From assembly GCA_034717975.1 (NCBI GenBank), contig JAYEMF010000111.1:1-35158 (forward strand): a stretch of 35,158 nt of DNA, in the 5' to 3' direction. Below, one piece after another: positions 5,521 through 35,036 of this stretch. The notes under the pieces were generated by a model that was not told where the DNA came from, made no database searches, and saw nothing but the letters and a program-made list of their open reading frames with translations. Origin of the DNA: Campylobacterota bacterium. Lineage in GTDB: Bacteria > Campylobacterota > Campylobacteria > Campylobacterales > Sulfurimonadaceae. Positions within the stretch are counted from its first letter, which is position 1; the number at the start of each line of letters is the position of its first letter. A program made the position numbers and the translations under genes.

Positions 5521-5840
5521 TCAGCCGCGCTAAACATCCGGGCGTAGTGTTCGGTACCTTCACGACCGATAAAAGTCTGTGTCCCGACACTGAGGGAGAA
5601 GTTCGTCTTGTTGACATCCATGCCTTCACATTTAACGGTTTTACCCTGATTGTACTCAAGTATAATCGCATTAGTGTGTTTCCGCGCATTATCGCCCATC
5701 ACATTGTAGGCGTACATCCCGCCGATAAGAAGAGCCGCACCTATGCTGATCCCCGTTTTTTGAGTATGGTTCAACTCGGTAAAGTAGTGCAGTGCTGCAA
5801 AGAACACGATAACAACGACAATGCCTAAGATATAACTCAT
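5511..5840 (-). CDS. Hypothetical membrane protein (2 N-terminal TM segments)
   Basis: 109 aa; overlaps the murC stop (ATGA) and the mutS2 start. Confidence 0.8.
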   Translation of the reverse strand: MSYILGIVVVIVFFAALHYFTELNHTQKTGISIGAALLIGGMYAYNVMGDNARKHTNAIILEYNQGKTVKCEGMDVNKTNFSLSVGTQTFIGREGTEHYARMFSAAECR

Positions 5841-7144
5841 TTTTCACCTCTTATCTGATAAGTAATGTCACCGGCACCAAAACCGATGATGATCCCTTCG
5901 TCCAGTGTCTCCATCACCTCATCGTGCTGACAGACATTGACCGCATCGTGATCACGCTTGAGATAATCCGCCATCTGCAGATTATAGCCGCTAAAATGCT
6001 TCTCGAAATCAATAAAGCGCTCTTTTTCACTTGCTGCCCAGACCGGCAGAATCACCAGTTTATCGGCTCCCTCAAAACAGGTCGTAAAGGCTTCCAGATT
6101 ATCGATCGTTCGTGAATATTTATGAGGCTGCCAGATGGCGGTGATTTTCTCGATACCTTTGAGTCGGGCATAGGTCGTAACCGCCTGCATAGTTGCAGCG
6201 ATCTCGGTCGGATGGTGGCCATAATCATCTATCACGACAGTTGAGTCACTTTTAGTGATAATATCAAAGCGTTTTTTGATCCCTTGGTAGTGCAACAGAC
6301 GGATACGCACCGCCTCAATATCCATACTCTGAACGGCCGCCAGAATAGCCAGTGAAGCATCGAGGGCAATATGCTCGCCAAAGCCCCAGACATCAAATGT
6401 CCCAAGGTCTTTTAACGTAAAACGGGTATAAGGCTCATCATCGATCAGGACATACTCTACACCTGTGATATCTCTGCTTGGATAGAGCCGGATAGCTTCA
6501 CCCTCTATGCTCTCGAGAAACGGGTCTTCCATATTGATGATACGCAGTGACGCCGAGGCAATGAACTTACGGTAAGAGTCATAAAAGAGGTCGAAGTCAT
6601 ATTTATAATACTCCATATGTTCCGGCTCGGCATTGATGACAATGGCACAGTAGGGATTGGAATTTAGAAAGCTGCCGTCACTCTCATCTGCTTCGAAGAT
6701 AAGCTGATCGGTTGTATCGTCATAGCGTACGTTTGAACCGAAGGCTTTTGACTCCGCACCGATGATCGCCGAGCCGTCCATAATAGCCGCCAGAATGGCA
6801 CTGGTCGTACTTTTGCCATGCGCACCGGCAACCGCATAGACCTTCTGTTCATGCAGCAGGTCAAGCAGTGCCTCGCGGCGGGCAAGCACCTTGATCCCCT
6901 GCTCTTTGGCTTCGACCACTTCCGGATTATCAGGCGAGATGATCGCTGAGTGGATGACCAGGTCCTGGGCATCGATCGCTTTTTTATTGTGCGGGATCGT
7001 CACTTCGATCCCTTTCTCACGAAGTGTCTTGACAATGCGGGATTCGGCGATATCCGAACCGCTTACTTCATGCCCTTTATAGTGCATATACTGCGCCAGT
7101 CCGGAGATACCGATGCCGCCAATGCCGATAAAGTGGATTTTCAT
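5837..7144 (-). CDS. murC: UDP-N-acetylmuramate--L-alanine ligase
   Basis: MKIHFIGIGGIGISG, GAHGKSTT, EADESDGSF, DDYGHHPTEI. Start moved from the ORF-track 7162 to the ATG at 7144, which follows an AGGA SD. Confidence 0.97.
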   Translation of the reverse strand: MKIHFIGIGGIGISGLAQYMHYKGHEVSGSDIAESRIVKTLREKGIEVTIPHNKKAIDAQDLVIHSAIISPDNPEVVEAKEQGIKVLARREALLDLLHEQKVYAVAGAHGKSTTSAILAAIMDGSAIIGAESKAFGSNVRYDDTTDQLIFEADESDGSFLNSNPYCAIVINAEPEHMEYYKYDFDLFYDSYRKFIASASLRIINMEDPFLESIEGEAIRLYPSRDITGVEYVLIDDEPYTRFTLKDLGTFDVWGFGEHIALDASLAILAAVQSMDIEAVRIRLLHYQGIKKRFDIITKSDSTVVIDDYGHHPTEIAATMQAVTTYARLKGIEKITAIWQPHKYSRTIDNLEAFTTCFEGADKLVILPVWAASEKERFIDFEKHFSGYNLQMADYLKRDHDAVNVCQHDEVMETLDEGIIIGFGAGDITYQIRGEK

Positions 7145-7299
7145 TTGATTTCCTGACGCCAAAGGAGCAAAGCCCCTCTGGCTACGCTACCGCTTGAGTT
7201 GCTTCGGCAGCAGGCCCGCGTACCTTTTGCACTTTTGGATGATTCGAGACAAACAGTTGCCATTTTAATAATTTGTGACCCTATGGCATACTCCTTCAT
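7141..7299 (-). CDS. Putative 52-aa bridging mini-ORF through a hairpin repeat
   Basis: MKEYAIGSQIIKMATVCLESSKSAKGTRACCRSNSSGSVARGALLLWRQEIK*. The ATG directly follows the upstream TAG; the TGA overlaps the murC ATG (ATGA). Confidence 0.5.
   Translation of the reverse strand: MKEYAIGSQIIKMATVCLESSKSAKGTRACCRSNSSGSVARGALLLWRQEIK
7156..7220 (+). repeat. ACGC-hairpin-CTACG repeat family, copy 1
   Basis: acgCCAAAGGagcaaagccCCTCTGGctacgctaccgct...ggcagcaggcccgcg. Confidence 0.85.
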
Positions 7300-7797
7300 C
7301 TACACATTATCCTGATCGAGATTATCAAGGAGGGTCTGTGCTGCTTCTTTAAAAGAGCTGATATAAAAGGTACCGGCGTTCTGCGTTTCTTCAATATCGG
7401 CGATGGTATTGATAAAATCTTCGAGTGACAACCCTGATCGTGCCGCCCCAAGATGAAGGAGCATAGATCTGGAAAAAGGCTCATCATTAGTCAGTCCCGA
7501 AAGTACTTCGAAGAGTGCCGCCGCATCGATCGCCTTACCGGCACTGTAATGCTCTATGGCATACTCGTAGAGCGCACGGACTGTTGCGAAGTCCTGTACT
7601 TCGGTCATATCCATCCGGCGTGCCGCTTCCAAGGCATCGGTTAAATTCTCGAGTGCCAGATCAAGGATATTGGAGTAATAGGCGCTCAGCGTCTTCTCAT
7701 CAAATGTCTCGTGAGCCTCCTGTTCCAGGACATAGAGTCCGGCGATGTCACCTTCGGTCTGTGCCTTTAACACCTTCTCTTTTAACGCTTCACTCAT
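7300..7797 (-). CDS. Hypothetical helical protein
   Basis: 165 aa ORF in the dapC-murC run, acidic and alpha-helical, AAGG SD. Confidence 0.8.
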   Translation of the reverse strand: MSEALKEKVLKAQTEGDIAGLYVLEQEAHETFDEKTLSAYYSNILDLALENLTDALEAARRMDMTEVQDFATVRALYEYAIEHYSAGKAIDAAALFEVLSGLTNDEPFSRSMLLHLGAARSGLSLEDFINTIADIEETQNAGTFYISSFKEAAQTLLDNLDQDNV

Positions 7798-7919
7798 GAC
7801 AGTGCCTTATAAATTATTTGAACACCAAAGGAAGTAATTCCTTTGGTTACGCTAACGCTGTGTTTACTTAGGCAGTAGGCCCGCGCACAGTAAACCGTGC
7901 TTAAACTATTTTCTAACAT
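7794..7919 (-). CDS. Putative 41-aa bridging mini-ORF through a hairpin repeat
   Basis: MLENSLSTVYCARAYCLSKHSVSVTKGITSFGVQIIYKALS*. TGATG overlap with the dapC stop; ATGA overlap with the next start. Confidence 0.55.
   Translation of the reverse strand: MLENSLSTVYCARAYCLSKHSVSVTKGITSFGVQIIYKALS
7822..7885 (+). repeat. ACGC-hairpin-CTACG repeat family, copy 2
   Basis: acaCCAAAGGAAgtaaTTCCTTTGGttacgctaacgct...ggcagtaggcccgcg. Confidence 0.85.
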
Positions 7920-9064
7920 CATTTTGTTTCACCTAATGCCTGTTTAATGCGCATCAACGCTTCTTTTGTACGCGCTTCACTCTCTACCAGTGCGATCCGG
8001 ACAAACCCTTTACCGGGGTTGTTGCCGTTTGCATCAGTCCGTGCGAGATACTCACCCGGCAGGACTTTGACATTGTAATCGGCGTAGAGGCGCTTGGTAA
8101 ACTCAAGCGCGTCATCCACCTGCAGCCAGATATAGAAGGTTGCTTCCGGGGTATCAACGCCCAATATTTCACTGGCCAGTTCAAAATTTCGCTTATAGAC
8201 TTCGCGCGATGCGGCTACATGTGTCTCCTCCTGCCATGCAGCAGCGGCGGCCGCCTGGAGCGGAAGGGGAGATGCCGCACCGACATAGGTACGGTACTTC
8301 ATGTAGGCTTTCAGTATCTCTGCATCACCGGCAATAAATCCGGAGCGCAGTCCCGGAGCGGAAGAGCGTTTGGAGATCGAATTGATCACCAGTACATTTT
8401 TCAGGCTCTCATTGCCGACATGCTTAGCCGCTTCCAGCAGTGATGGCGGCGGTGTATCGGTATAGATCTCGCTGTAGCACTCATCATTCATCAGTACAAA
8501 ATCATGCTTCAGCGCCAGTTTAACCCACTCGCCAAGTTCATCAAGAGTCAATACCGAAGCGGTCGGGTTGTTTGGGAAGTTCAGAATGACCAGGTCACAC
8601 CTGGTCAGTTCCGTTTCGTCAATCGCCGGTTTAAATCCATTGGCTTCATCGAGATTTAAAAAGTTCATCTCTGCACGGCTGGCGATAGCCGCACCTTCGT
8701 AGATCTGGTAAAACGGGTTGGTAAAAGCCATCACCGGGGCTTCTTTCTCAAAGAGCAGAAACTGCGGGAAGTTGAAAAGCACTTCGCGGGTACCAAAGGT
8801 CGGAATGATCTCCTGATCACTTAAGCTCACGCCAAAACGCTTGGAGACAAACGACTGCATCGCCGTTTTCAGATCCGCTTCACCGGCGGTTTTCGGATAC
8901 TTTTTCAGGAGCGATGAACTCGCTTTCAATCTCTCCTGAATAAAATCAGGCGTCTCAAACTGGGGTTCACCAATGGTCAGGGCAATAGGGTCATAAGTAC
9001 TGTTTGATACGACCGTTTCAAGCAGGGTTGTCAGTTTTTCAAATGGATAGGGTTCAAATTGCAA
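7919..9064 (-). CDS. dapC: Succinyldiaminopimelate transaminase (PLP class I/II)
   Basis: LTIGEPQ, GTREVLF, NFPNNPT, DECYSEIY, SISKRSSAPGLRSGF; TTG start. Confidence 0.88.
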   Translation of the reverse strand: MQFEPYPFEKLTTLLETVVSNSTYDPIALTIGEPQFETPDFIQERLKASSSLLKKYPKTAGEADLKTAMQSFVSKRFGVSLSDQEIIPTFGTREVLFNFPQFLLFEKEAPVMAFTNPFYQIYEGAAIASRAEMNFLNLDEANGFKPAIDETELTRCDLVILNFPNNPTASVLTLDELGEWVKLALKHDFVLMNDECYSEIYTDTPPPSLLEAAKHVGNESLKNVLVINSISKRSSAPGLRSGFIAGDAEILKAYMKYRTYVGAASPLPLQAAAAAAWQEETHVAASREVYKRNFELASEILGVDTPEATFYIWLQVDDALEFTKRLYADYNVKVLPGEYLARTDANGNNPGKGFVRIALVESEARTKEALMRIKQALGETK

Positions 9065-13208: not shown

Positions 13209-13283
13209 AAGCTTGGCCTTTGAAAATTATTTTGTGAGTGTAGCATTTTTATCTCTTAAAGTTGATATACCTGAGCACCCTGC

Positions 13284-15701
13284 TCAGATATCATCTTTTT
13301 CAGGCATCGTGATGTTATGGCTTGGAATCGGCATGGCAATGCCGGCTTTTCGGATGGCATCATATACACCCAAAGCCACCTCACTTTTTGTGCGTATGAT
13401 CTCTTCGCTGACCCAGTAGTAGAGCTTAAACTCCAGATAGTACTCGCCAAAACCTTTAAACGCGGCAGCCGGTTCAGGATCATCCAGAACATATTCATGA
13501 TTGAGAGCAACCTCTTTCATCAATGCCAGTACCTGATGCGGATCACTTCCAAAAGCGACTTTAAAGAGGAGTTCTGCACGGCGTTGGTTATCTGATAGGG
13601 TCCAGTTCGTCACCTTTTGTGAAATAAAATCGGCATTTGGTACAATCACTTCCGAGCCATCGAAAGTTTCGACAGAGCTCGAACGCACACCGATCGATTT
13701 TACCTTCCCGAAGGTATTATCCATCTCGATGGTATCGCCGATCTGCACAGGCCGTTCAAAGACCATGATGATTCCGGAGACGAAGTTGGCGATGATATTT
13801 CGAAGACCGAAACCAAGACCCACCCCAAGTGCTCCGGCAAGCAGGCCAAGGTGGCTCATATTGAGACCAAGCGAGGAGAGTGCCAGCAAAAATCCAAGGG
13901 CGACAATAAAGTAACGGATTACCATAGAGATAGCTGTCGGCACACCTCTTGGCAGTTTGATTCTTGGAAAGACTTCCAGGTGAAGAAACATACGTACCGC
14001 TTTGATAATCAGCCATGTCATCATTAAAACGAACATAAAACTGCCAATCGCTTCAATCGTAATAGAGACCGATCCAAAATACCACTTATGCATTACCAGC
14101 TCATCCAGCCACGCTTTGACCGGTGTCAAAACACCAAATGTCTTCGCACTGTAATAAGCCCAGATACCAAAGGAGACAACAGTGATAAAATAGCTTACAC
14201 TCCCCTGCATCTCCCTTGAGTAAGCCTTGACAATATAGAGTGATTCAGAAGCGCGCCGTCGAATGAAAAGAACCGCCAGTCCGATAAAAAGCTGTGAAAT
14301 CGCATACATCAACAGAAGAAACATTAACGTAATGGTCATACCTTCGCTAATACGTGTCGCAAGCGTAACACTGCCATAGAGGTTGGCCGCTATCGAAACT
14401 GCCATTATTACATACACAAGCGGTACCAGTTTTAGCAAAAACCTGAACCAGCCGTTTATCGGCAGCTCATATATAAAACTGTTTTTTTGCACTAATTGAA
14501 AAAATCCGGCAATAATACCGATGGTTATACCCAGTAAAAGCAGGCGGTTGATAATTTCAAACTCACCTATACTCCTAATCATAAATACCATTGTGAAAAT
14601 GATGGCAATCGTATAGACATACCGCATAAAGCGTATATCTGCCATACGTCTGAAAATAATTACAATGGGGATGACCCCCAGCATCATCCCCAACTGGCCA
14701 AGGACAGCCGGCCGGTCACTGTAGATAAAGATGATGCTGAAAAGTGAAAGAATAATGGTTGCAGAGATCGGTCTGGAGACAAACGTAACGGAGCCCCACA
14801 CCTTTTCATCACGCTTGATAAAAAGCTCACGTCTTTTGTCTAAAACATAGAGATAGATCATCAATATCAGTAAAACAACTGTTATAAAACCATGAATGAT
14901 CAATCGGTCTTTATTGGTAACCAGATAGATACGGGCATCATTCAACATATCGCCCACAGAGACAAACAGAGCAGGAAAATAACCGGACAGGCTTACTTCA
15001 TCCGTACCAAAAAGCCAGAAAATCGGTTCACTTTCCTGTACAAAAAGTCGGTTGCTCTGTTTCTCTTCAACCTCTTTGATACGCTTCATCAGTTCAGATA
15101 TTTTCAGCATCTCACTCGATACCGAGTTGCTGCAGGTCAGGAGAACATCATACGTTATCTTGGTTTCATCATGATATGATTTAAGCTTTGCGAGTACCTC
15201 ATCAATACGTAAAGTGATCGCTTCTGGAGCATCTTCCGCTTTTGCTTTCAGAGCTGTTTGGGACCATAGGATTTCGCTCTTTTCAAATGCTTTAATCGCA
15301 TCACTATGTTTTGTAACATGCTGATCCAATCCAGTTTTCCACTCTTTGAACTGCTTATAACTGATGGACCACTGCTGATAGAGCTTCTGAAGTTTTCGGA
15401 TACTCTCATTTTCCAGATCGCTGTAGACCGGATTCTCATACTCATCCTGCAACGACTCAATAAAGGCCTCAATGCTCTTCTCCAGCTCTTTATCCTGCTC
15501 ACTCACTAGAAGTTTTCCATGGATATTGCCAAGTTCGACAATAGCACTGTTTGCCTGATCTGGTACATCGTTGACCAGAATAAAGGTGATCTCTTCTGGA
15601 GTGTTCGTCTCAGCAGGCAAATCGGTCTGCAGTGGTTTTGAGTCTGCACCGACAGCGATGGAAAAGAGAAGCAGTAGCAGTAACAGCGTTCTGTGTAGCA
15701 T
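13284..15701 (-). CDS. Large MscS-family (MscK-like) mechanosensitive channel
   Basis: Signal peptide, helical periplasmic domain, multiple TMs, GALGVGLGFGLRNIIANFVSG, ERPVQIGD, VIVPN. Start reset to the ATG at 15701 (GAGGA SD). Confidence 0.92.
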   Translation of the reverse strand: MLHRTLLLLLLLFSIAVGADSKPLQTDLPAETNTPEEITFILVNDVPDQANSAIVELGNIHGKLLVSEQDKELEKSIEAFIESLQDEYENPVYSDLENESIRKLQKLYQQWSISYKQFKEWKTGLDQHVTKHSDAIKAFEKSEILWSQTALKAKAEDAPEAITLRIDEVLAKLKSYHDETKITYDVLLTCSNSVSSEMLKISELMKRIKEVEEKQSNRLFVQESEPIFWLFGTDEVSLSGYFPALFVSVGDMLNDARIYLVTNKDRLIIHGFITVVLLILMIYLYVLDKRRELFIKRDEKVWGSVTFVSRPISATIILSLFSIIFIYSDRPAVLGQLGMMLGVIPIVIIFRRMADIRFMRYVYTIAIIFTMVFMIRSIGEFEIINRLLLLGITIGIIAGFFQLVQKNSFIYELPINGWFRFLLKLVPLVYVIMAVSIAANLYGSVTLATRISEGMTITLMFLLLMYAISQLFIGLAVLFIRRRASESLYIVKAYSREMQGSVSYFITVVSFGIWAYYSAKTFGVLTPVKAWLDELVMHKWYFGSVSITIEAIGSFMFVLMMTWLIIKAVRMFLHLEVFPRIKLPRGVPTAISMVIRYFIVALGFLLALSSLGLNMSHLGLLAGALGVGLGFGLRNIIANFVSGIIMVFERPVQIGDTIEMDNTFGKVKSIGVRSSSVETFDGSEVIVPNADFISQKVTNWTLSDNQRRAELLFKVAFGSDPHQVLALMKEVALNHEYVLDDPEPAAAFKGFGEYYLEFKLYYWVSEEIIRTKSEVALGVYDAIRKAGIAMPIPSHNITMPEKDDI

Positions 15702-15741
15702 TAGTATCCTCGCATTCAATATAGGGGCATCTCTAAAGACA

Positions 15742-15892
15742 CACGGTAATGCAAAACTCACCTCTGTTTAAGGTGTACGCTCTGTCATTCCTGCGAAGGC
15801 AGGAATCTAAGCCTCAAATACTCAAGATTCCTGCCTTCGCAGGAATAACGGCATGCGCTATTTAATGTAAATCTTAGTTTTGATTTACCGTA
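15742..15892. mobile_element. 151-bp MITE with 9-bp target duplication carrying a REP doublet
   Basis: Terminal inverted repeats CACGGTAATGCAAAACT / TACGGTAAATCAAAACT (14/17); flanking direct repeat CTAAAGACA at 15733-15741 and 15893-15901. Confidence 0.8.
15784..15849. repeat. Inverted doublet of GTCATTCCTGCGAAGGCAGGAATCT REP-like palindrome
   Basis: Copies at 15784-15808 (+) and 15825-15849 (-), separated by 16 nt. Confidence 0.9.
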
Positions 15893-26460: not shown

Positions 26461-26532
26461 CTCTGCCCCAAAAGGGGCAAGCTTCAGTGCCATAGCGGCT
26501 AGCGTAGTGAAATGGGCTTCGCTCATTTCACG

Positions 26533-26533
<1 letters not shown>
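26461..26533 (-). repeat. ACGC-hairpin-CTACG repeat family, copy 3 (opposite orientation)
   Basis: Minus strand: acGTGAAATGagcgaagccCATTTCACtacgctagccgctatggcactgaagcttgccccttttggggcaga. Confidence 0.88.
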
Positions 26534-28007: not shown

Positions 28008-28159
28008 ACGCAAAACGAACAAAGTCCGTTTTGCTACGCTAGCCGCTATATCCAGTGCTAACCAACGGCACTGAACACACGTGGCACTTCTGTGCTAAAG
28101 CATGATGCTGAAAATCACTAAATGATTTCCAGTGAAAGCTTGCCTCTGTTGAGGCAGAA
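28008..28159 (+). repeat. ACGC-hairpin-CTACG repeat family, copy 4 (long composite)
   Basis: acGCAAAACGaacaaagtcCGTTTTGCtacgctagccgcta-tccagtgctaaccaacggcactgaacacacg...aagcttgcctctgttgaggcaga. Confidence 0.88.
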
Positions 28160-33595: not shown

Positions 33596-33608
33596 GTCTA
33601 AAAAAGTC

Positions 33609-33637
33609 TTGACAAAGAGCCATCTTTTCTCTATAAT
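33609..33637 (+). promoter_or_regulatory. Consensus sigma70 promoter of the tRNA operon
   Basis: TTGACA-17 nt-TATAAT followed by GC-rich ttcggcc. Confidence 0.9.
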
Positions 33638-33669
33638 TTCGGCCTCACAAACAGTTGTGATACGTTAAT

Positions 33670-33745
33670 GTCTTGTTAGCTCAGTTGGTAGAGCATCTCA
33701 CTTTTAATGAGGTGGCCGTAGGTTCGAATCCTACACAGGACACCA
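33670..33745 (+). tRNA. tRNA-Lys(UUU)
   Basis: Cloverleaf, anticodon loop CTTTTAA, GGTTCGAATCC, CCA end. Confidence 0.96.
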
Positions 33746-33748
33746 GAC

Positions 33749-33813
33749 AATTTAATTTTTAATGATGGATTTTTAATTTTTAATTGAGCATTCAAAATTT
33801 AAAATTTAAAATT
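33749..33813. repeat. AT-rich inverted heptamer repeats
   Basis: TTTTAAT-type units followed by complementary AAAATTT-type units. Confidence 0.65.
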
Positions 33814-33819
33814 ATTTAC

Positions 33820-33896
33820 GCGGTGGTAGTTCAGTTGGTTAGAATACCTGCCTGTCACGCAGGGGGTCGCGAGTTCGAGTCTCGTCCACCGCGCCA
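33820..33896 (+). tRNA. tRNA-Asp(GUC)
   Basis: Cloverleaf, loop CTGTCAC, GCCA end. Confidence 0.97.
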
Positions 33897-33909
33897 GAAC
33901 ACAATTTGT

Positions 33910-34013
33910 ACGCAAAACGAGCAAAAGCCCGTTTTACTACGTTTATCCAGTGCGAACCAATGGCACTGAACACACGAATACTAGGTTTTCTTCAGCAGAA
34001 AGCTCAGAAAACG
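33910..34013 (+). repeat. ACGC-hairpin-CTACG repeat family, copy 5
   Basis: acgcAAAACGagcaaaagccCGTTTTactacg-tttatccagtgcgaaccaatggcactgaacacacg-ctaggttttcttcagcagaaagctcagaaa. Confidence 0.9.
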
Positions 34014-34050
34014 AAAAGTACTTGTTCCATTTTATGTTAAAACGTAATAT

Positions 34051-34126
34051 GGGCGCTTAGCTCAGTTGGTAGAGCGCTACCCTTACAAGGTAGATGTCAC
34101 AAGTTCGAGTCTTGTAGTGCCCACCA
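34051..34126 (+). tRNA. tRNA-Val(UAC)
   Basis: Cloverleaf, loop CTTACAA, ACCA end. Confidence 0.97.
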
Positions 34127-34131
34127 TTGAC

Positions 34132-34201
34132 AATTTTGAATGCTTAATGTTTAATTTTGAATTTTCTTTCATTCAACATTAAAAATTTAAAATTAATAAT
34201 T
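34132..34201. repeat. AT-rich inverted heptamer repeats
   Basis: TTTGAAT/TTTAAT units followed by ATTCAAC/ATTTAAA units. Confidence 0.65.
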
Positions 34202-34209
34202 ATTTTGCT

Positions 34210-34285
34210 GACCCTTTCGTCTAGTGGCCAAGGACACTATCACTTCATGGTAGGGACAGAGGTTCAAATCCTTTAGGGGTCGCCA
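34210..34285 (+). tRNA. tRNA-Glu(UUC), atypical anticodon loop
   Basis: Acceptor GACCCTT/AGGGGTC, Glu-like D arm, anticodon stem CTATC/GGTAG, loop ACTTCAT, GCCA end. Confidence 0.85.
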
Positions 34286-34310
34286 TTTCGGTGCTGTCTA
34301 TTGATTTTGT

Positions 34311-34412
34311 ACGCATCATGAGCAAAGCCCATGATACTACGTTTATCCAGTGCGAACCAATGGCACTGAACACACGAACACTAGGTTTTCTTCAGCAGAA
34401 AGCTCAGAAACG
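34311..34412 (+). repeat. ACGC-hairpin-CTACG repeat family, copy 6
   Basis: acgcATCATGagcaaagccCATGATactacg followed by modules nearly identical to copy 5. Confidence 0.9.
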
Positions 34413-34438
34413 AAAAATTTAGTTTTTCCCATTTCGAT

Positions 34439-34514
34439 GGGCGCTTAGCTCAGTTGGTAGAGCGCTACCCTTACAAGGTAGATGTCACAAGTTCGAGTCT
34501 TGTAGTGCCCACCA
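34439..34514 (+). tRNA. tRNA-Val(UAC)
   Basis: Identical to 34051-34126. Confidence 0.97.
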
Positions 34515-34529
34515 TATTATTTATTTTGT

Positions 34530-34603
34530 ACGCAAAACGAGCAAAAGCCCGTTTTACTACGTTAACACTAGGTTTTACTCAGCGTAAAGCTCACGCAACT
34601 AGT
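34530..34603 (+). repeat. ACGC-hairpin-CTACG repeat family, copy 7
   Basis: acgcAAAACGagcaaaagccCGTTTTactacg-ttaacactaggttttactcagcgtaaagctcacgcaactagt; lacks the CAGTGC module. Confidence 0.88.
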
Positions 34604-34674
34604 TGCTTTTAGGTGTTAAAATTTTAATAACGAAATTTTGTTTCATTTTAAACGAAAGTTAAAGATAAAACGCT

Positions 34675-34680
34675 TATAAT
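34675..34680 (+). promoter_or_regulatory. Putative -10 box for the second tRNA-Asp
   Basis: TATAAT followed by ttcgctca, resembling the context of the first tRNA promoter. Confidence 0.6.
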
Positions 34681-34693
34681 TTCGCTCACGGTT

Positions 34694-34770
34694 GCGGTGG
34701 TAGTTCAGTTGGTTAGAATACCTGCCTGTCACGCAGGGGGTCGCGAGTTCGAGTCTCGTCCACCGCGCCA
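34694..34770 (+). tRNA. tRNA-Asp(GUC)
   Basis: Identical to 33820-33896. Confidence 0.97.
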
Positions 34771-35036
34771 TTTCCCTCTTTAATTGTAAATTCTAAACGC
34801 CAATTCTAAAAATAAGTGCAATTTTCAACATGAAATATCTTCGCTATTCAAGCATCCCTGCAGCAGCTGATCATCTCAATACCTTGACCGACGACCTACA
34901 CAGTAAACTTCGTCCATTCCGCACCTGACAAAGATCTCCTATTGCTGCCTCTACTGAAAGGCCTTAACACTCTGCTAACACTTCTAAACTATACTTACCA
35001 AACCAATACAGAAGGATTGAACATGAACAAACTTAT

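Follow-up and report, generated by a model that had tools for sequence, protein, structure and literature searches.

Mycobacterial interspersed repetitive units (MIRUs) are short repeats found between the genes of operons. They seem to insert at start codons, and the open reading frame (ORF) that they carry is coupled at a −4 spacing, which probably minimises the impact of the insertion (PMC12548453). The ends of the MIRU ORF overlap the adjacent genes, and filled sites carry tetranucleotide direct repeats (PMC3184786). The GTAG-tagged repetitive extragenic palindromic sequences (REPs) were described by Di Nocera, De Gregorio and Rocco in 2013; GTAG and CGTC repeats occur together in Sulfurovum sp. 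NBC37-1, which belongs to the phylum considered here (PMC3733652). The present work deals with a GTAG-tagged, REP-like hairpin repeat in a 35,158-nt stretch of DNA from a sulfur-oxidising Campylobacterota bacterium of the family Sulfurimonadaceae (assembly GCA_034717975.1, contig JAYEMF010000111.1, positions 1 to 35,158; hereafter the window), where two copies lie in one operon and each is crossed by a mini-ORF reaching from the stop codon of one gene to the start codon of the next.

NTGA is the commonest overlap between coupled genes, and coupling declines with distance. Translation of an upstream frame can unfold structures that mask a ribosome-binding site (RBS), and short ORFs can deliver ribosomes (PMC12548453). 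The initial annotation of the window, made from the letters alone, proposed that ribosomes are relayed through the repeats by termination–reinitiation and unfold the hairpins on their way. Both are established coupling mechanisms according to the same source, and the concept, presented as undescribed in this group, is already in print there for MIRUs. The explanation favoured here, with a probability of about 55%, is that the element inserted twice in an ancestrally tight operon, and that the bridging mini-ORFs are translated and keep the translation of hyp and MurC coupled.

Two bridged junctions in the aminotransferase–hyp–murC operon

The operon is on the minus strand. It begins with a class I/II, dapC-like aminotransferase (7919..9064, stop TGA 7921-7919; Pfam PF00155, E = 7e-37), followed by hyp (7300..7797), an ORF for a conserved protein of 165 aa which is found by tblastn in relatives and has no Pfam match, and by murC (5837..7144), the UDP-N-acetylmuramate-L-alanine ligase, identified by its Pfam Mur_ligase domains. 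The murC start ATG 7144 is preferred over the upstream TTG 7162 of the ORF list, since MKIHFIGIGG aligns from residue 1 in 15 relatives. The spacers measure 121 nt between the aminotransferase and hyp and 155 nt between hyp and murC, and each contains one copy of the repeat.

Mini-ORF 1 (7794..7922, minus strand) has 42 codons, or 41 from its second ATG. Its two in-frame ATGs (7922-7920 and 7919-7917) overlap the aminotransferase TGA as ATGA and TGATG, and its own TGA (7796-7794) lies within the ATGA of the hyp start (ATG 7797-7795). The repeat copy that it crosses belongs to subfamily B (7822..7892, minus strand, nhmmer 49.7 bits), and its core GTAG hairpin (7822-7866) scores 43.8 bits with the covariance model R1. 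The entry retains AGGTGA eight nt 5′ of the ATG, the same spacing as that of AAGGAG before hyp in relatives, which makes translation of mini-ORF 1 plausible.

Mini-ORF 2 (7141..7299, minus strand, 52 codons) starts at ATG 7299, immediately after the hyp TAG (7302-7300), and ends on TGA 7143-7141 within the ATGA of the murC start (ATG 7144-7142). Its repeat copy, on the same strand, is of the long subfamily A (7156..7262): nhmmer matches 7156-7235, and an extra 5′ module (TGTTYG...) extends to about 7262. The core hairpin (7156-7201) scores 54.4 bits with the covariance model. The initial annotation had reported both repeat copies, the stop-free ORFs that span the spacers and their overlaps, and all of these details are correct.

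Both downstream genes also have motifs resembling a Shine–Dalgarno (SD) sequence: AAGG stands 7 nt 5′ of the hyp ATG and 13 nt past the hairpin, and AGGA stands 2 nt past the hairpin in front of murC. No terminator-like site is predicted within 6900-8200, a scan of the window at the Rfam gathering thresholds returns six tRNAs only and nothing at the repeats, and a Pfam scan finds no family for the mini-ORFs. In predicted folds, both of them weak predictions, the 5′ part of the element pairs with the hyp start region at the first junction (z = −1.84), and just the hairpins of the element itself form at the second (z = −1.22).

The ancestral state of the operon can be read from relatives. Fifteen of them retain the aminotransferase-hyp-murC order with tight junctions. 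The aminotransferase orthologues located beside hyp and murC are 58-77% identical, and hyp is 57-75% identical (tblastn) in 14 relatives of the family and 30% identical in L031, from another family. In L021 and L029, tblastn matched the aminotransferase and murC and gave no hyp match. Both same-genus genomes (L008, L009) lack either insertion, which indicates that the two insertions of the window are recent. The first junction is empty in L008, L009, L013 and L015, where the aminotransferase stop and the hyp start overlap as ATGA. The hyp-murC spacers of relatives measure 0-60 nt, except that of L014, which has its own repeat copy; in L014/L364, from another genus, this same junction is bridged in another frame. 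In L008 and L009 the codon aligned to the murC ATG is TTA, with no in-frame ATG, GTG or TTG near.

At the first junction, ATGA stands at either end of the insertion, which measures 125 nt. Mini-ORF 1 reads the 18 nt that lead up to the hyp start (7811-7794) as ..YKALS-stop, and the aminotransferase ends ..RIKEALS-stop or ..LKEALS-stop on the same ATGA in L013 and L015. This match, established by eye, indicates that the tail of mini-ORF 1 (7794..7811, minus strand) is a relic of the 3′ end of the ancestral aminotransferase gene, in the ancestral frame and including the ancestral TGA/ATG overlap. A 10-nt direct repeat around this junction was considered as a target duplication and rejected, one of its copies lying within conserved aminotransferase coding sequence.

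At the second junction, mini-ORF 2 contains an internal in-frame ATG (7263-7261), 119 nt 5′ of the murC ATG 7144. This codon lies in a 10-nt stretch that shares 7 of its 10 positions with the murC start region, so that ATG 7263 looks like an orphaned copy of the murC start. The same 119-nt geometry is found at G000:C27:31714, with an 8/9 duplication of the downstream start, read through to ATGA.

Contigs from four DNA runs of one study contain the identical sequence plus other repeat copies, and no insertion-free variant was seen among them. One 179-nt low-depth contig of a relative departs upstream of the murC start and is too short for use.

The repeat family and its insertion sites

Iterated nhmmer searches find 77 copies in the genome (2.52 Mb, 149 contigs), and a covariance model of the shared core gives 85 matches. 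This model was used instead of an exact IUPAC pattern, which yielded merely 9 matches in five relatives. It matches 53 of the 61 sampled genomes of the family, in all 23 sampled genera, with 0 to 91 copies per genome. An exact-pattern scan of species genomes led to loci titled Sulfurimonas, Sulfuricurvum, Sulfurovum, Sulfurospirillum and other Campylobacterota; nhmmer confirmed 62 of the 80 fetched loci, and the remaining 18, mostly from unrelated phyla, are chance matches.

The core consists of GTAG, then an 11-bp stem with a TTT loop, and CGT. In a 65-sequence alignment (A1), 96.4% of the 703 stem cells are paired and 8 of the 11 pairs are altered on both sides; the covariation score of the hairpin is matched by none of 500 shuffles. 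C-G-T-A is invariant, and the next G, which adjoins the stem on its 5′ side, has a conservation of at least 90%. A G·U pair (columns 29 and 38) is retained in 62 of 64 distinct sequences while its neighbours covary freely. As this pair would be a C·A mismatch on the other strand, the fold is strand-specific, and it is one strand, as RNA or single-stranded DNA, that matters. Longer forms have one or two extra 5′ hairpins and a 5′ module, and a few copies (G000:C104:6928, C68:7096, site 1 of G062) have outer inverted repeats, which are absent from most. In other species, near-identical units repeat in tandem every 71-86 nt at L052 (989-1174), L057 (957-1204), L243 and L238, and one array stands directly 5′ of a gene start having its own AAAGGAG.

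The copies are extragenic: 72 of the 77 in the genome overlap a called gene by at most 20 nt. The spacers are co-directional for 52 copies, divergent for 10 and convergent for 8, and 7 copies are at contig ends. In the co-directional spacers of all records, 104 copies are sense and 79 antisense (p = 0.08). The repeat is classed as a mobile GTAG-tagged REP-like hairpin element.

Direct repeats that flank the copies score at least 10 for 44 of 345 copies, compared to 4 of 345 shuffled controls. The duplications measure 10-24 nt, and at least 42 nt in L271; single copies in L080, L090, L231, L070 and L058, as in L271, are flanked by direct repeats of 19-24 nt (at least 42 nt in L271). They are far longer and more variable than the target duplications of transposases, which suggests a replication- or repair-based route of insertion.

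Where an operon junction is the target, the stop and the start are both part of the duplicated stretch. Such junction duplications measure 19 nt in L070 and 24 nt in L080. At G000:C15:36435, the duplication is of 10 nt and the mini-ORF begins with LSWL where the gene has MSWL; at G000:C104:6928, a 13-nt duplication frames a 53-codon bridge with ATGA in and out; at G000:C39:3763, the mini-ORF ends RS-stop, as the upstream protein does. Twelve flanking duplications hold a start codon. Site 1 of G062 is a recent, strictly bridged insertion, and the site is empty in G072, G011 and G048; sites 1 and 2 of G062 are both empty in G072. The exact overlaps thus exist because the ancestral junction was duplicated on insertion, and were not evolved.

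The peptides do not bear on function. Both mini-ORFs cross the repeat in one common frame, which yields related peptides, as the initial annotation had noted. The sense consensus has a single stop-free frame, since the other two each contain a conserved TAG triplet (in TTAGCG and in CGTAG); the antisense consensus has two open frames. A sense ORF that crosses the element is therefore forced into the third frame, and related peptides are forced with it. The shared frame is not evidence of function.

The hyp start and the murC start have each received one insertion of the element, which on inserting duplicates between 10 and more than 40 nt of its target. At a junction, the upstream copy of the target retains the real stop and an orphaned start codon, and the downstream copy the real start together with the final codons of the upstream gene and their stop, now orphaned as well. 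If the two copies are 2 modulo 3 apart, the ORF that begins at the orphan start crosses the element and ends on the TGA of the real NTGA start, as it does at both spacers. In the proposed relay, the mini-ORFs would be translated from the inherited initiation region, and the ribosomes would open the 11-bp hairpin and be handed on when they terminate at the next start. Termination–reinitiation or unfolding of the RNA would then keep the translation of hyp and MurC coupled and make the insertion tolerable.

Bridging, reading phase and competing explanations

A spacer was considered strictly bridged if an ORF starts within −4..+6 of the upstream stop and ends within −6..+4 of the downstream start. 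Genes and their starts were called with an in-house heuristic based on codon scores and SD motifs. The external set comprises 279 unique copies from other species (298 loci), made of the top-scoring model matches and of all matches in five genomes, some of them congeneric.

Among the co-directional spacers of 80-170 nt in this genome, 5 of 23 that bear a repeat are strictly bridged, compared to 5 of 256 repeat-free ones (Fisher 0.0005). Over all co-directional copies, 11 of 183 are bridged strictly and 25 loosely (5 and 10 of 43 in this genome, 6 and 15 of 140 in other species). In the 173 evaluable spacers, the 11 strict bridges are to be compared with 2.2 expected from shuffles of the whole spacer and 2.9 from shuffles of the flanks, in which gene borders and repeat core are fixed; the 25 loose bridges compare with 5.4 and 7.6. 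The excess persists in other species when the deliberately added L364 is left out (strict 5 vs 1.4, p = 0.004; loose 14 vs 4.2, p = 1e-5), and in this genome without the two spacers described above (strict 3 vs 0.85; loose 8 vs 2.7). The enrichment test suggested by the initial annotation is therefore positive (strict 11 of 173, 2.2-2.9 expected), with an excess of about four-fold. Bridging is found in both orientations of the repeat.

For the two spacers themselves, flank shuffles remain strictly bridged in 15% (murC side) and 19% (hyp side) of cases, and whole-spacer shuffles in 5% and 6%, i.e. with a joint probability of about 0.003 (0.05 × 0.057). Each bridge alone is unremarkable; the pair and the genome-wide excess exceed chance. 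A pure coincidence of two open frames in adjacent spacers would draw on these per-spacer probabilities, which are not tiny, and on the fact that 48% of the genes here start with NTGA, so that an exit overlap is cheap. The joint probability and the excess within and across species speak against it, and the duplicated junctions supply a mechanistic explanation; we regard it as highly improbable.

Geometry was assessed by simulation, with 21 payloads, defined by their duplications, inserted at 678 tight junctions of the genome. The average payload gives 2.6% strict and 5.1% loose bridges, and favourable payloads, which have an open frame and the right length, give 12% and 18%. The 8 strict and 20 loose bridges observed in 75 tight spacers are above the average payload (p = 7e-4 and 7e-10).

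The phase of the insertions was examined on non-tandem duplications scoring at least 9. An ORF opened by the orphan start finishes on an NTGA start when the copies are 2 modulo 3 apart. Duplications that hold the start codon of a long coding ORF have distances of 0, 1 and 2 modulo 3 in 1, 3 and 8 cases, and the rest in 16, 18 and 8. The skew (8/12 vs 8/42) has a Fisher probability of 0.003, and of 0.019 in a binomial test against one third. This bias suggests that start-codon insertions survive preferentially with a bridging geometry. ORFs that cross the whole element and stop at the start of the following gene are found for 23 of 131 co-directional records and 2 of 41 in other contexts (Fisher 0.045), the tails being longer in the non-co-directional contexts. 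A phase test on nhmmer borders (15 vs 10 for these relay-out ORFs, 7 vs 1.56 for full bridges) was discarded, as the tails exceed the match and some are paralogous, e.g. G000:C85:23688 and C39:35354, so that the phases are not independent. A control in which 1 or 2 nt are deleted shares this weakness, and its p-values carry no meaning.

A broader proposal follows the same line. Junction insertions may be filtered by reading phase, and persist mainly when a start-to-start relay is rebuilt at a distance of 2 modulo 3; the long variable duplications would result from a route that does not involve a transposase, such as hairpin-stalled replication with template switching, which is undescribed for REP-like elements. 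We put this forward tentatively, as somewhat doubtful in its entirety.

Several observations weigh against a functional relay. The 8 and 20 bridges in 75 tight spacers resemble what favourable payloads give (p = 0.69 and 0.04), and in this model geometry alone could suffice if favourable subfamilies dominate. The phase test has n = 12, thresholds chosen post hoc, a crude gene caller and partly related genomes. The openness of the sense frame depends on context in this genome (19/28 vs 11/42), which was not replicated in other species (28/58 vs 49/112). Most copies are unbridged, as the 11 strict and 25 loose bridges in 183 copies imply, and so are 2 of the 4 co-directional copies in the window; at G000:C104:7385, where the element sits on a TAATG junction overlap, every frame is closed. 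The insertion at site 2 of G062 is bridged and the orthologous one in G011 is not: there the frame is interrupted by two stops, indels of 3, 19, 1 and 6 nt have accumulated, and what remains open to the TGA over the TTG start is the 3′ part of the ORF alone. The initial annotation had looked to frame-preserving indels in orthologous spacers, and this pair shows stops and frame-breaking indels. Finally, we infer the translation of the mini-ORFs and the coupling from sequence.

Alternatively, the mini-ORFs may be idle by-products of the same insertions and duplications, hyp and murC being translated from their own AAGG and AGGA and the bridges lasting until they are mutated. Both genes have their SD-like motifs at normal spacing, many unbridged copies precede genes that retain their own AAGGAG, the probability of each bridge under flank shuffling is 0.15-0.19, and favourable payloads reach the observed rates by geometry; the loss of the bridge in G011 and the many unbridged copies fit as well. 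This explanation accounts less well for the phase bias at start-containing duplications, for the low rates of the average payload, for an excess over shuffles that is replicated in independent species and for the enrichment of relay-out ORFs in co-directional contexts, with the reservation about tails made above. It is a serious possibility, to which we give roughly one chance in three. The favoured explanation, a functional relay, is plausible, at about even odds.

A stronger version, in which the element has evolved as the carrier of a coupling ORF or selection acts on the peptides, is very unlikely. The consensus is stop-free in one sense and two antisense frames, the peptides are recognisably related and bridging occurs in both orientations. 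On the other hand, three open frames out of six over about 80 nt is near the expectation estimated from base composition, no more than 17 of the 53 long copies that are sense in co-directional spacers have an open sense frame, and the bridged ORFs differ in frame (L014 compared to the window) and in strand. The variable positions covary as base pairs and not as codons, and the peptides have no Pfam family. The suggestion that the repeat seeds a de novo microprotein family is thus unsupported, its variation following hairpin pairing.

The other copies in the window illustrate that the repeat is not a dedicated relay system, which is also indicated by the small number of strict bridges (11 of 183), the use of either orientation and the presence of copies in convergent and divergent spacers. 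The short-form copy at 26488..26533 (plus strand, 57.2 bits) is antisense to the flanking minus-strand genes and is not bridged. That at 28008..28053 (minus strand, 57.7 bits) is sense in a co-directional spacer and is not bridged either; its open frame has no start codon and ends 17 nt before the next start. Three copies (33910-34006, 34311-34406 and 34530-34600, within 33910..34600 on the minus strand) are antisense to plus-strand tRNA genes, in untranslated DNA. The tRNA cluster (33600-34820) contains six tRNA genes (Rfam), including two exact duplicate pairs, and its spacers are made of repeat copies, with an additional hairpin module that is absent from the operon copies. What stands of the relay interpretation is the excess of bridging and the phase bias at start-codon duplications; the dedicated system and the persistence of the bridge, lost in G011, do not.

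Comparison with described repeats

The element resembles MIRUs in that short intergenic repeats in operons carry a co-directional ORF, with −4 (NTGA) spacing, overlaps with the neighbours and direct repeats flanking the filled sites. A co-directional, repeat-borne ORF that overlaps the flanking stop and start is present at both spacers, as at 11 of the 183 copies overall, and insertion at start codons is documented by empty and filled sites (junction 1, sites 1 and 2 of G062, and the twelve duplications that hold a start). The differences lie in the phylum and in the element, which seems unrelated, judging from descriptions of MIRUs rather than from their sequence: it is a GTAG-tagged, 11-bp covarying hairpin with extra modules, found in both orientations and in different frames, its duplications vary from 10 to more than 40 nt, and a minority of copies is bridged. 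By analogy, the element may work like a MIRU, and it is filed as MIRU-like, not as a member. The source cited for the start-codon coupling of MIRUs is reportedly Supply et al. (1997, Mol Microbiol 26:991).

GTAG-tagged REPs are, in the excerpts of PMC3733652, short palindromic stem-loops with GTAG at the 5′ end, high in copy number and extragenic, the neighbouring genes being mostly unidirectional or convergent; the presence of G-T pairs in the stem points to a fold that is transcribed and strand-specific, and the termini often supply a TAG stop to flanking ORFs. The present element likewise has an 11-bp stem-loop, GTAG at one end and 77-85 extragenic copies in 2.5 Mb. It differs by stems that vary freely while loop and tags are conserved, by a modular build, with as many as three hairpins, outer inverted repeats in some copies and arrays in tandem, and by flanking target duplications, which are not a described REP feature; coupling ORFs are not discussed in those excerpts.

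The association of REPs with REP-associated tyrosine transposases (RAYTs), the REPtron, is not found here. The genome has six matches to PF01797 (Y1-transposase), at G000:C57, C146, C113, C46 (two) and C120, none of which has an R1 hairpin closer than about 1.5 kb. One scores 124.6 bits and has an internal TAG, four score 56-66 bits and one 36.8 bits; the five weaker matches could be RAYT-like. REPtrons can be missing, so the absence of a RAYT does not exclude kinship with REPs (PMC3733652).

Miniature inverted-repeat transposable elements (MITEs) have target duplications of fixed length; here they measure 10-24 nt and up to at least 42 nt, and the outer inverted repeats that could serve as terminal ones are seen in some copies, not in most. 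Palindromic repeats are also tolerated by staying translatable in Rickettsia, whose palindromic elements (RPEs) reportedly continue the frame of a gene (Ogata et al. 2000). An RPE is internal to its gene and lengthens the host protein by some residues, whereas here the ORF is separate and intergenic. Short upstream ORFs that deliver ribosomes are closer in one respect, since their role may be just to end on the next start, and hairpins near a downstream RBS are opened by upstream translation (PMC12548453); they differ in that here the ORF was made by a mobile insertion between genes that were formerly directly coupled.

The literature search found no paper that links MITEs or REPs with translational coupling or describes repeats in Sulfurimonas, and no description for Campylobacterota, the supplementary REP lists of Di Nocera et al. 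being outside its scope. On the effects of REPs on translation termination, it found nothing concerning REPs. What is new here is the host phylum, the GTAG REP-like covarying hairpin, the bridging in both orientations, the long variable duplications and first, modest statistics on a phase filter.

Two further repeats of the window are distinct from this family or of another kind. A 25-nt inverted repeat (15784-15849), 96% complementary, with a 16-nt loop and arms that are each palindromic, is distinct from the GTAG repeat and sits between divergent genes, the 5′ end of a minus-strand gene (13283-15761) adjoining it on one side and a plus-strand gene lying on the other. Positions 540-824, within ORF 102-1250, contain 15 overlapping GAG/GAT-rich units at spacings that are multiples of 3, which form an acidic low-complexity stretch.

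The results have a consequence for annotation: ORFs of 35-55 codons such as these should not be called protein genes, and the start codons beside the repeats need care, since orphan starts with an inherited ribosome-binding region occur 110-160 nt upstream of the true ones. The dozens of natural pairs of filled and empty junctions, in both orientations and all three phases, are material to test the dependence of downstream genes on termination–reinitiation. If the phase filter is true, the repeat family would amount to a natural genome-wide mutagenesis experiment, in which coupling is needed at many junctions. If the favoured explanation is true, a second, unrelated repeat family in a distant phylum would have reached the same solution as MIRUs, and insertion at start codons combined with translatability would be a general route by which selfish hairpin repeats enter operons without polarity.

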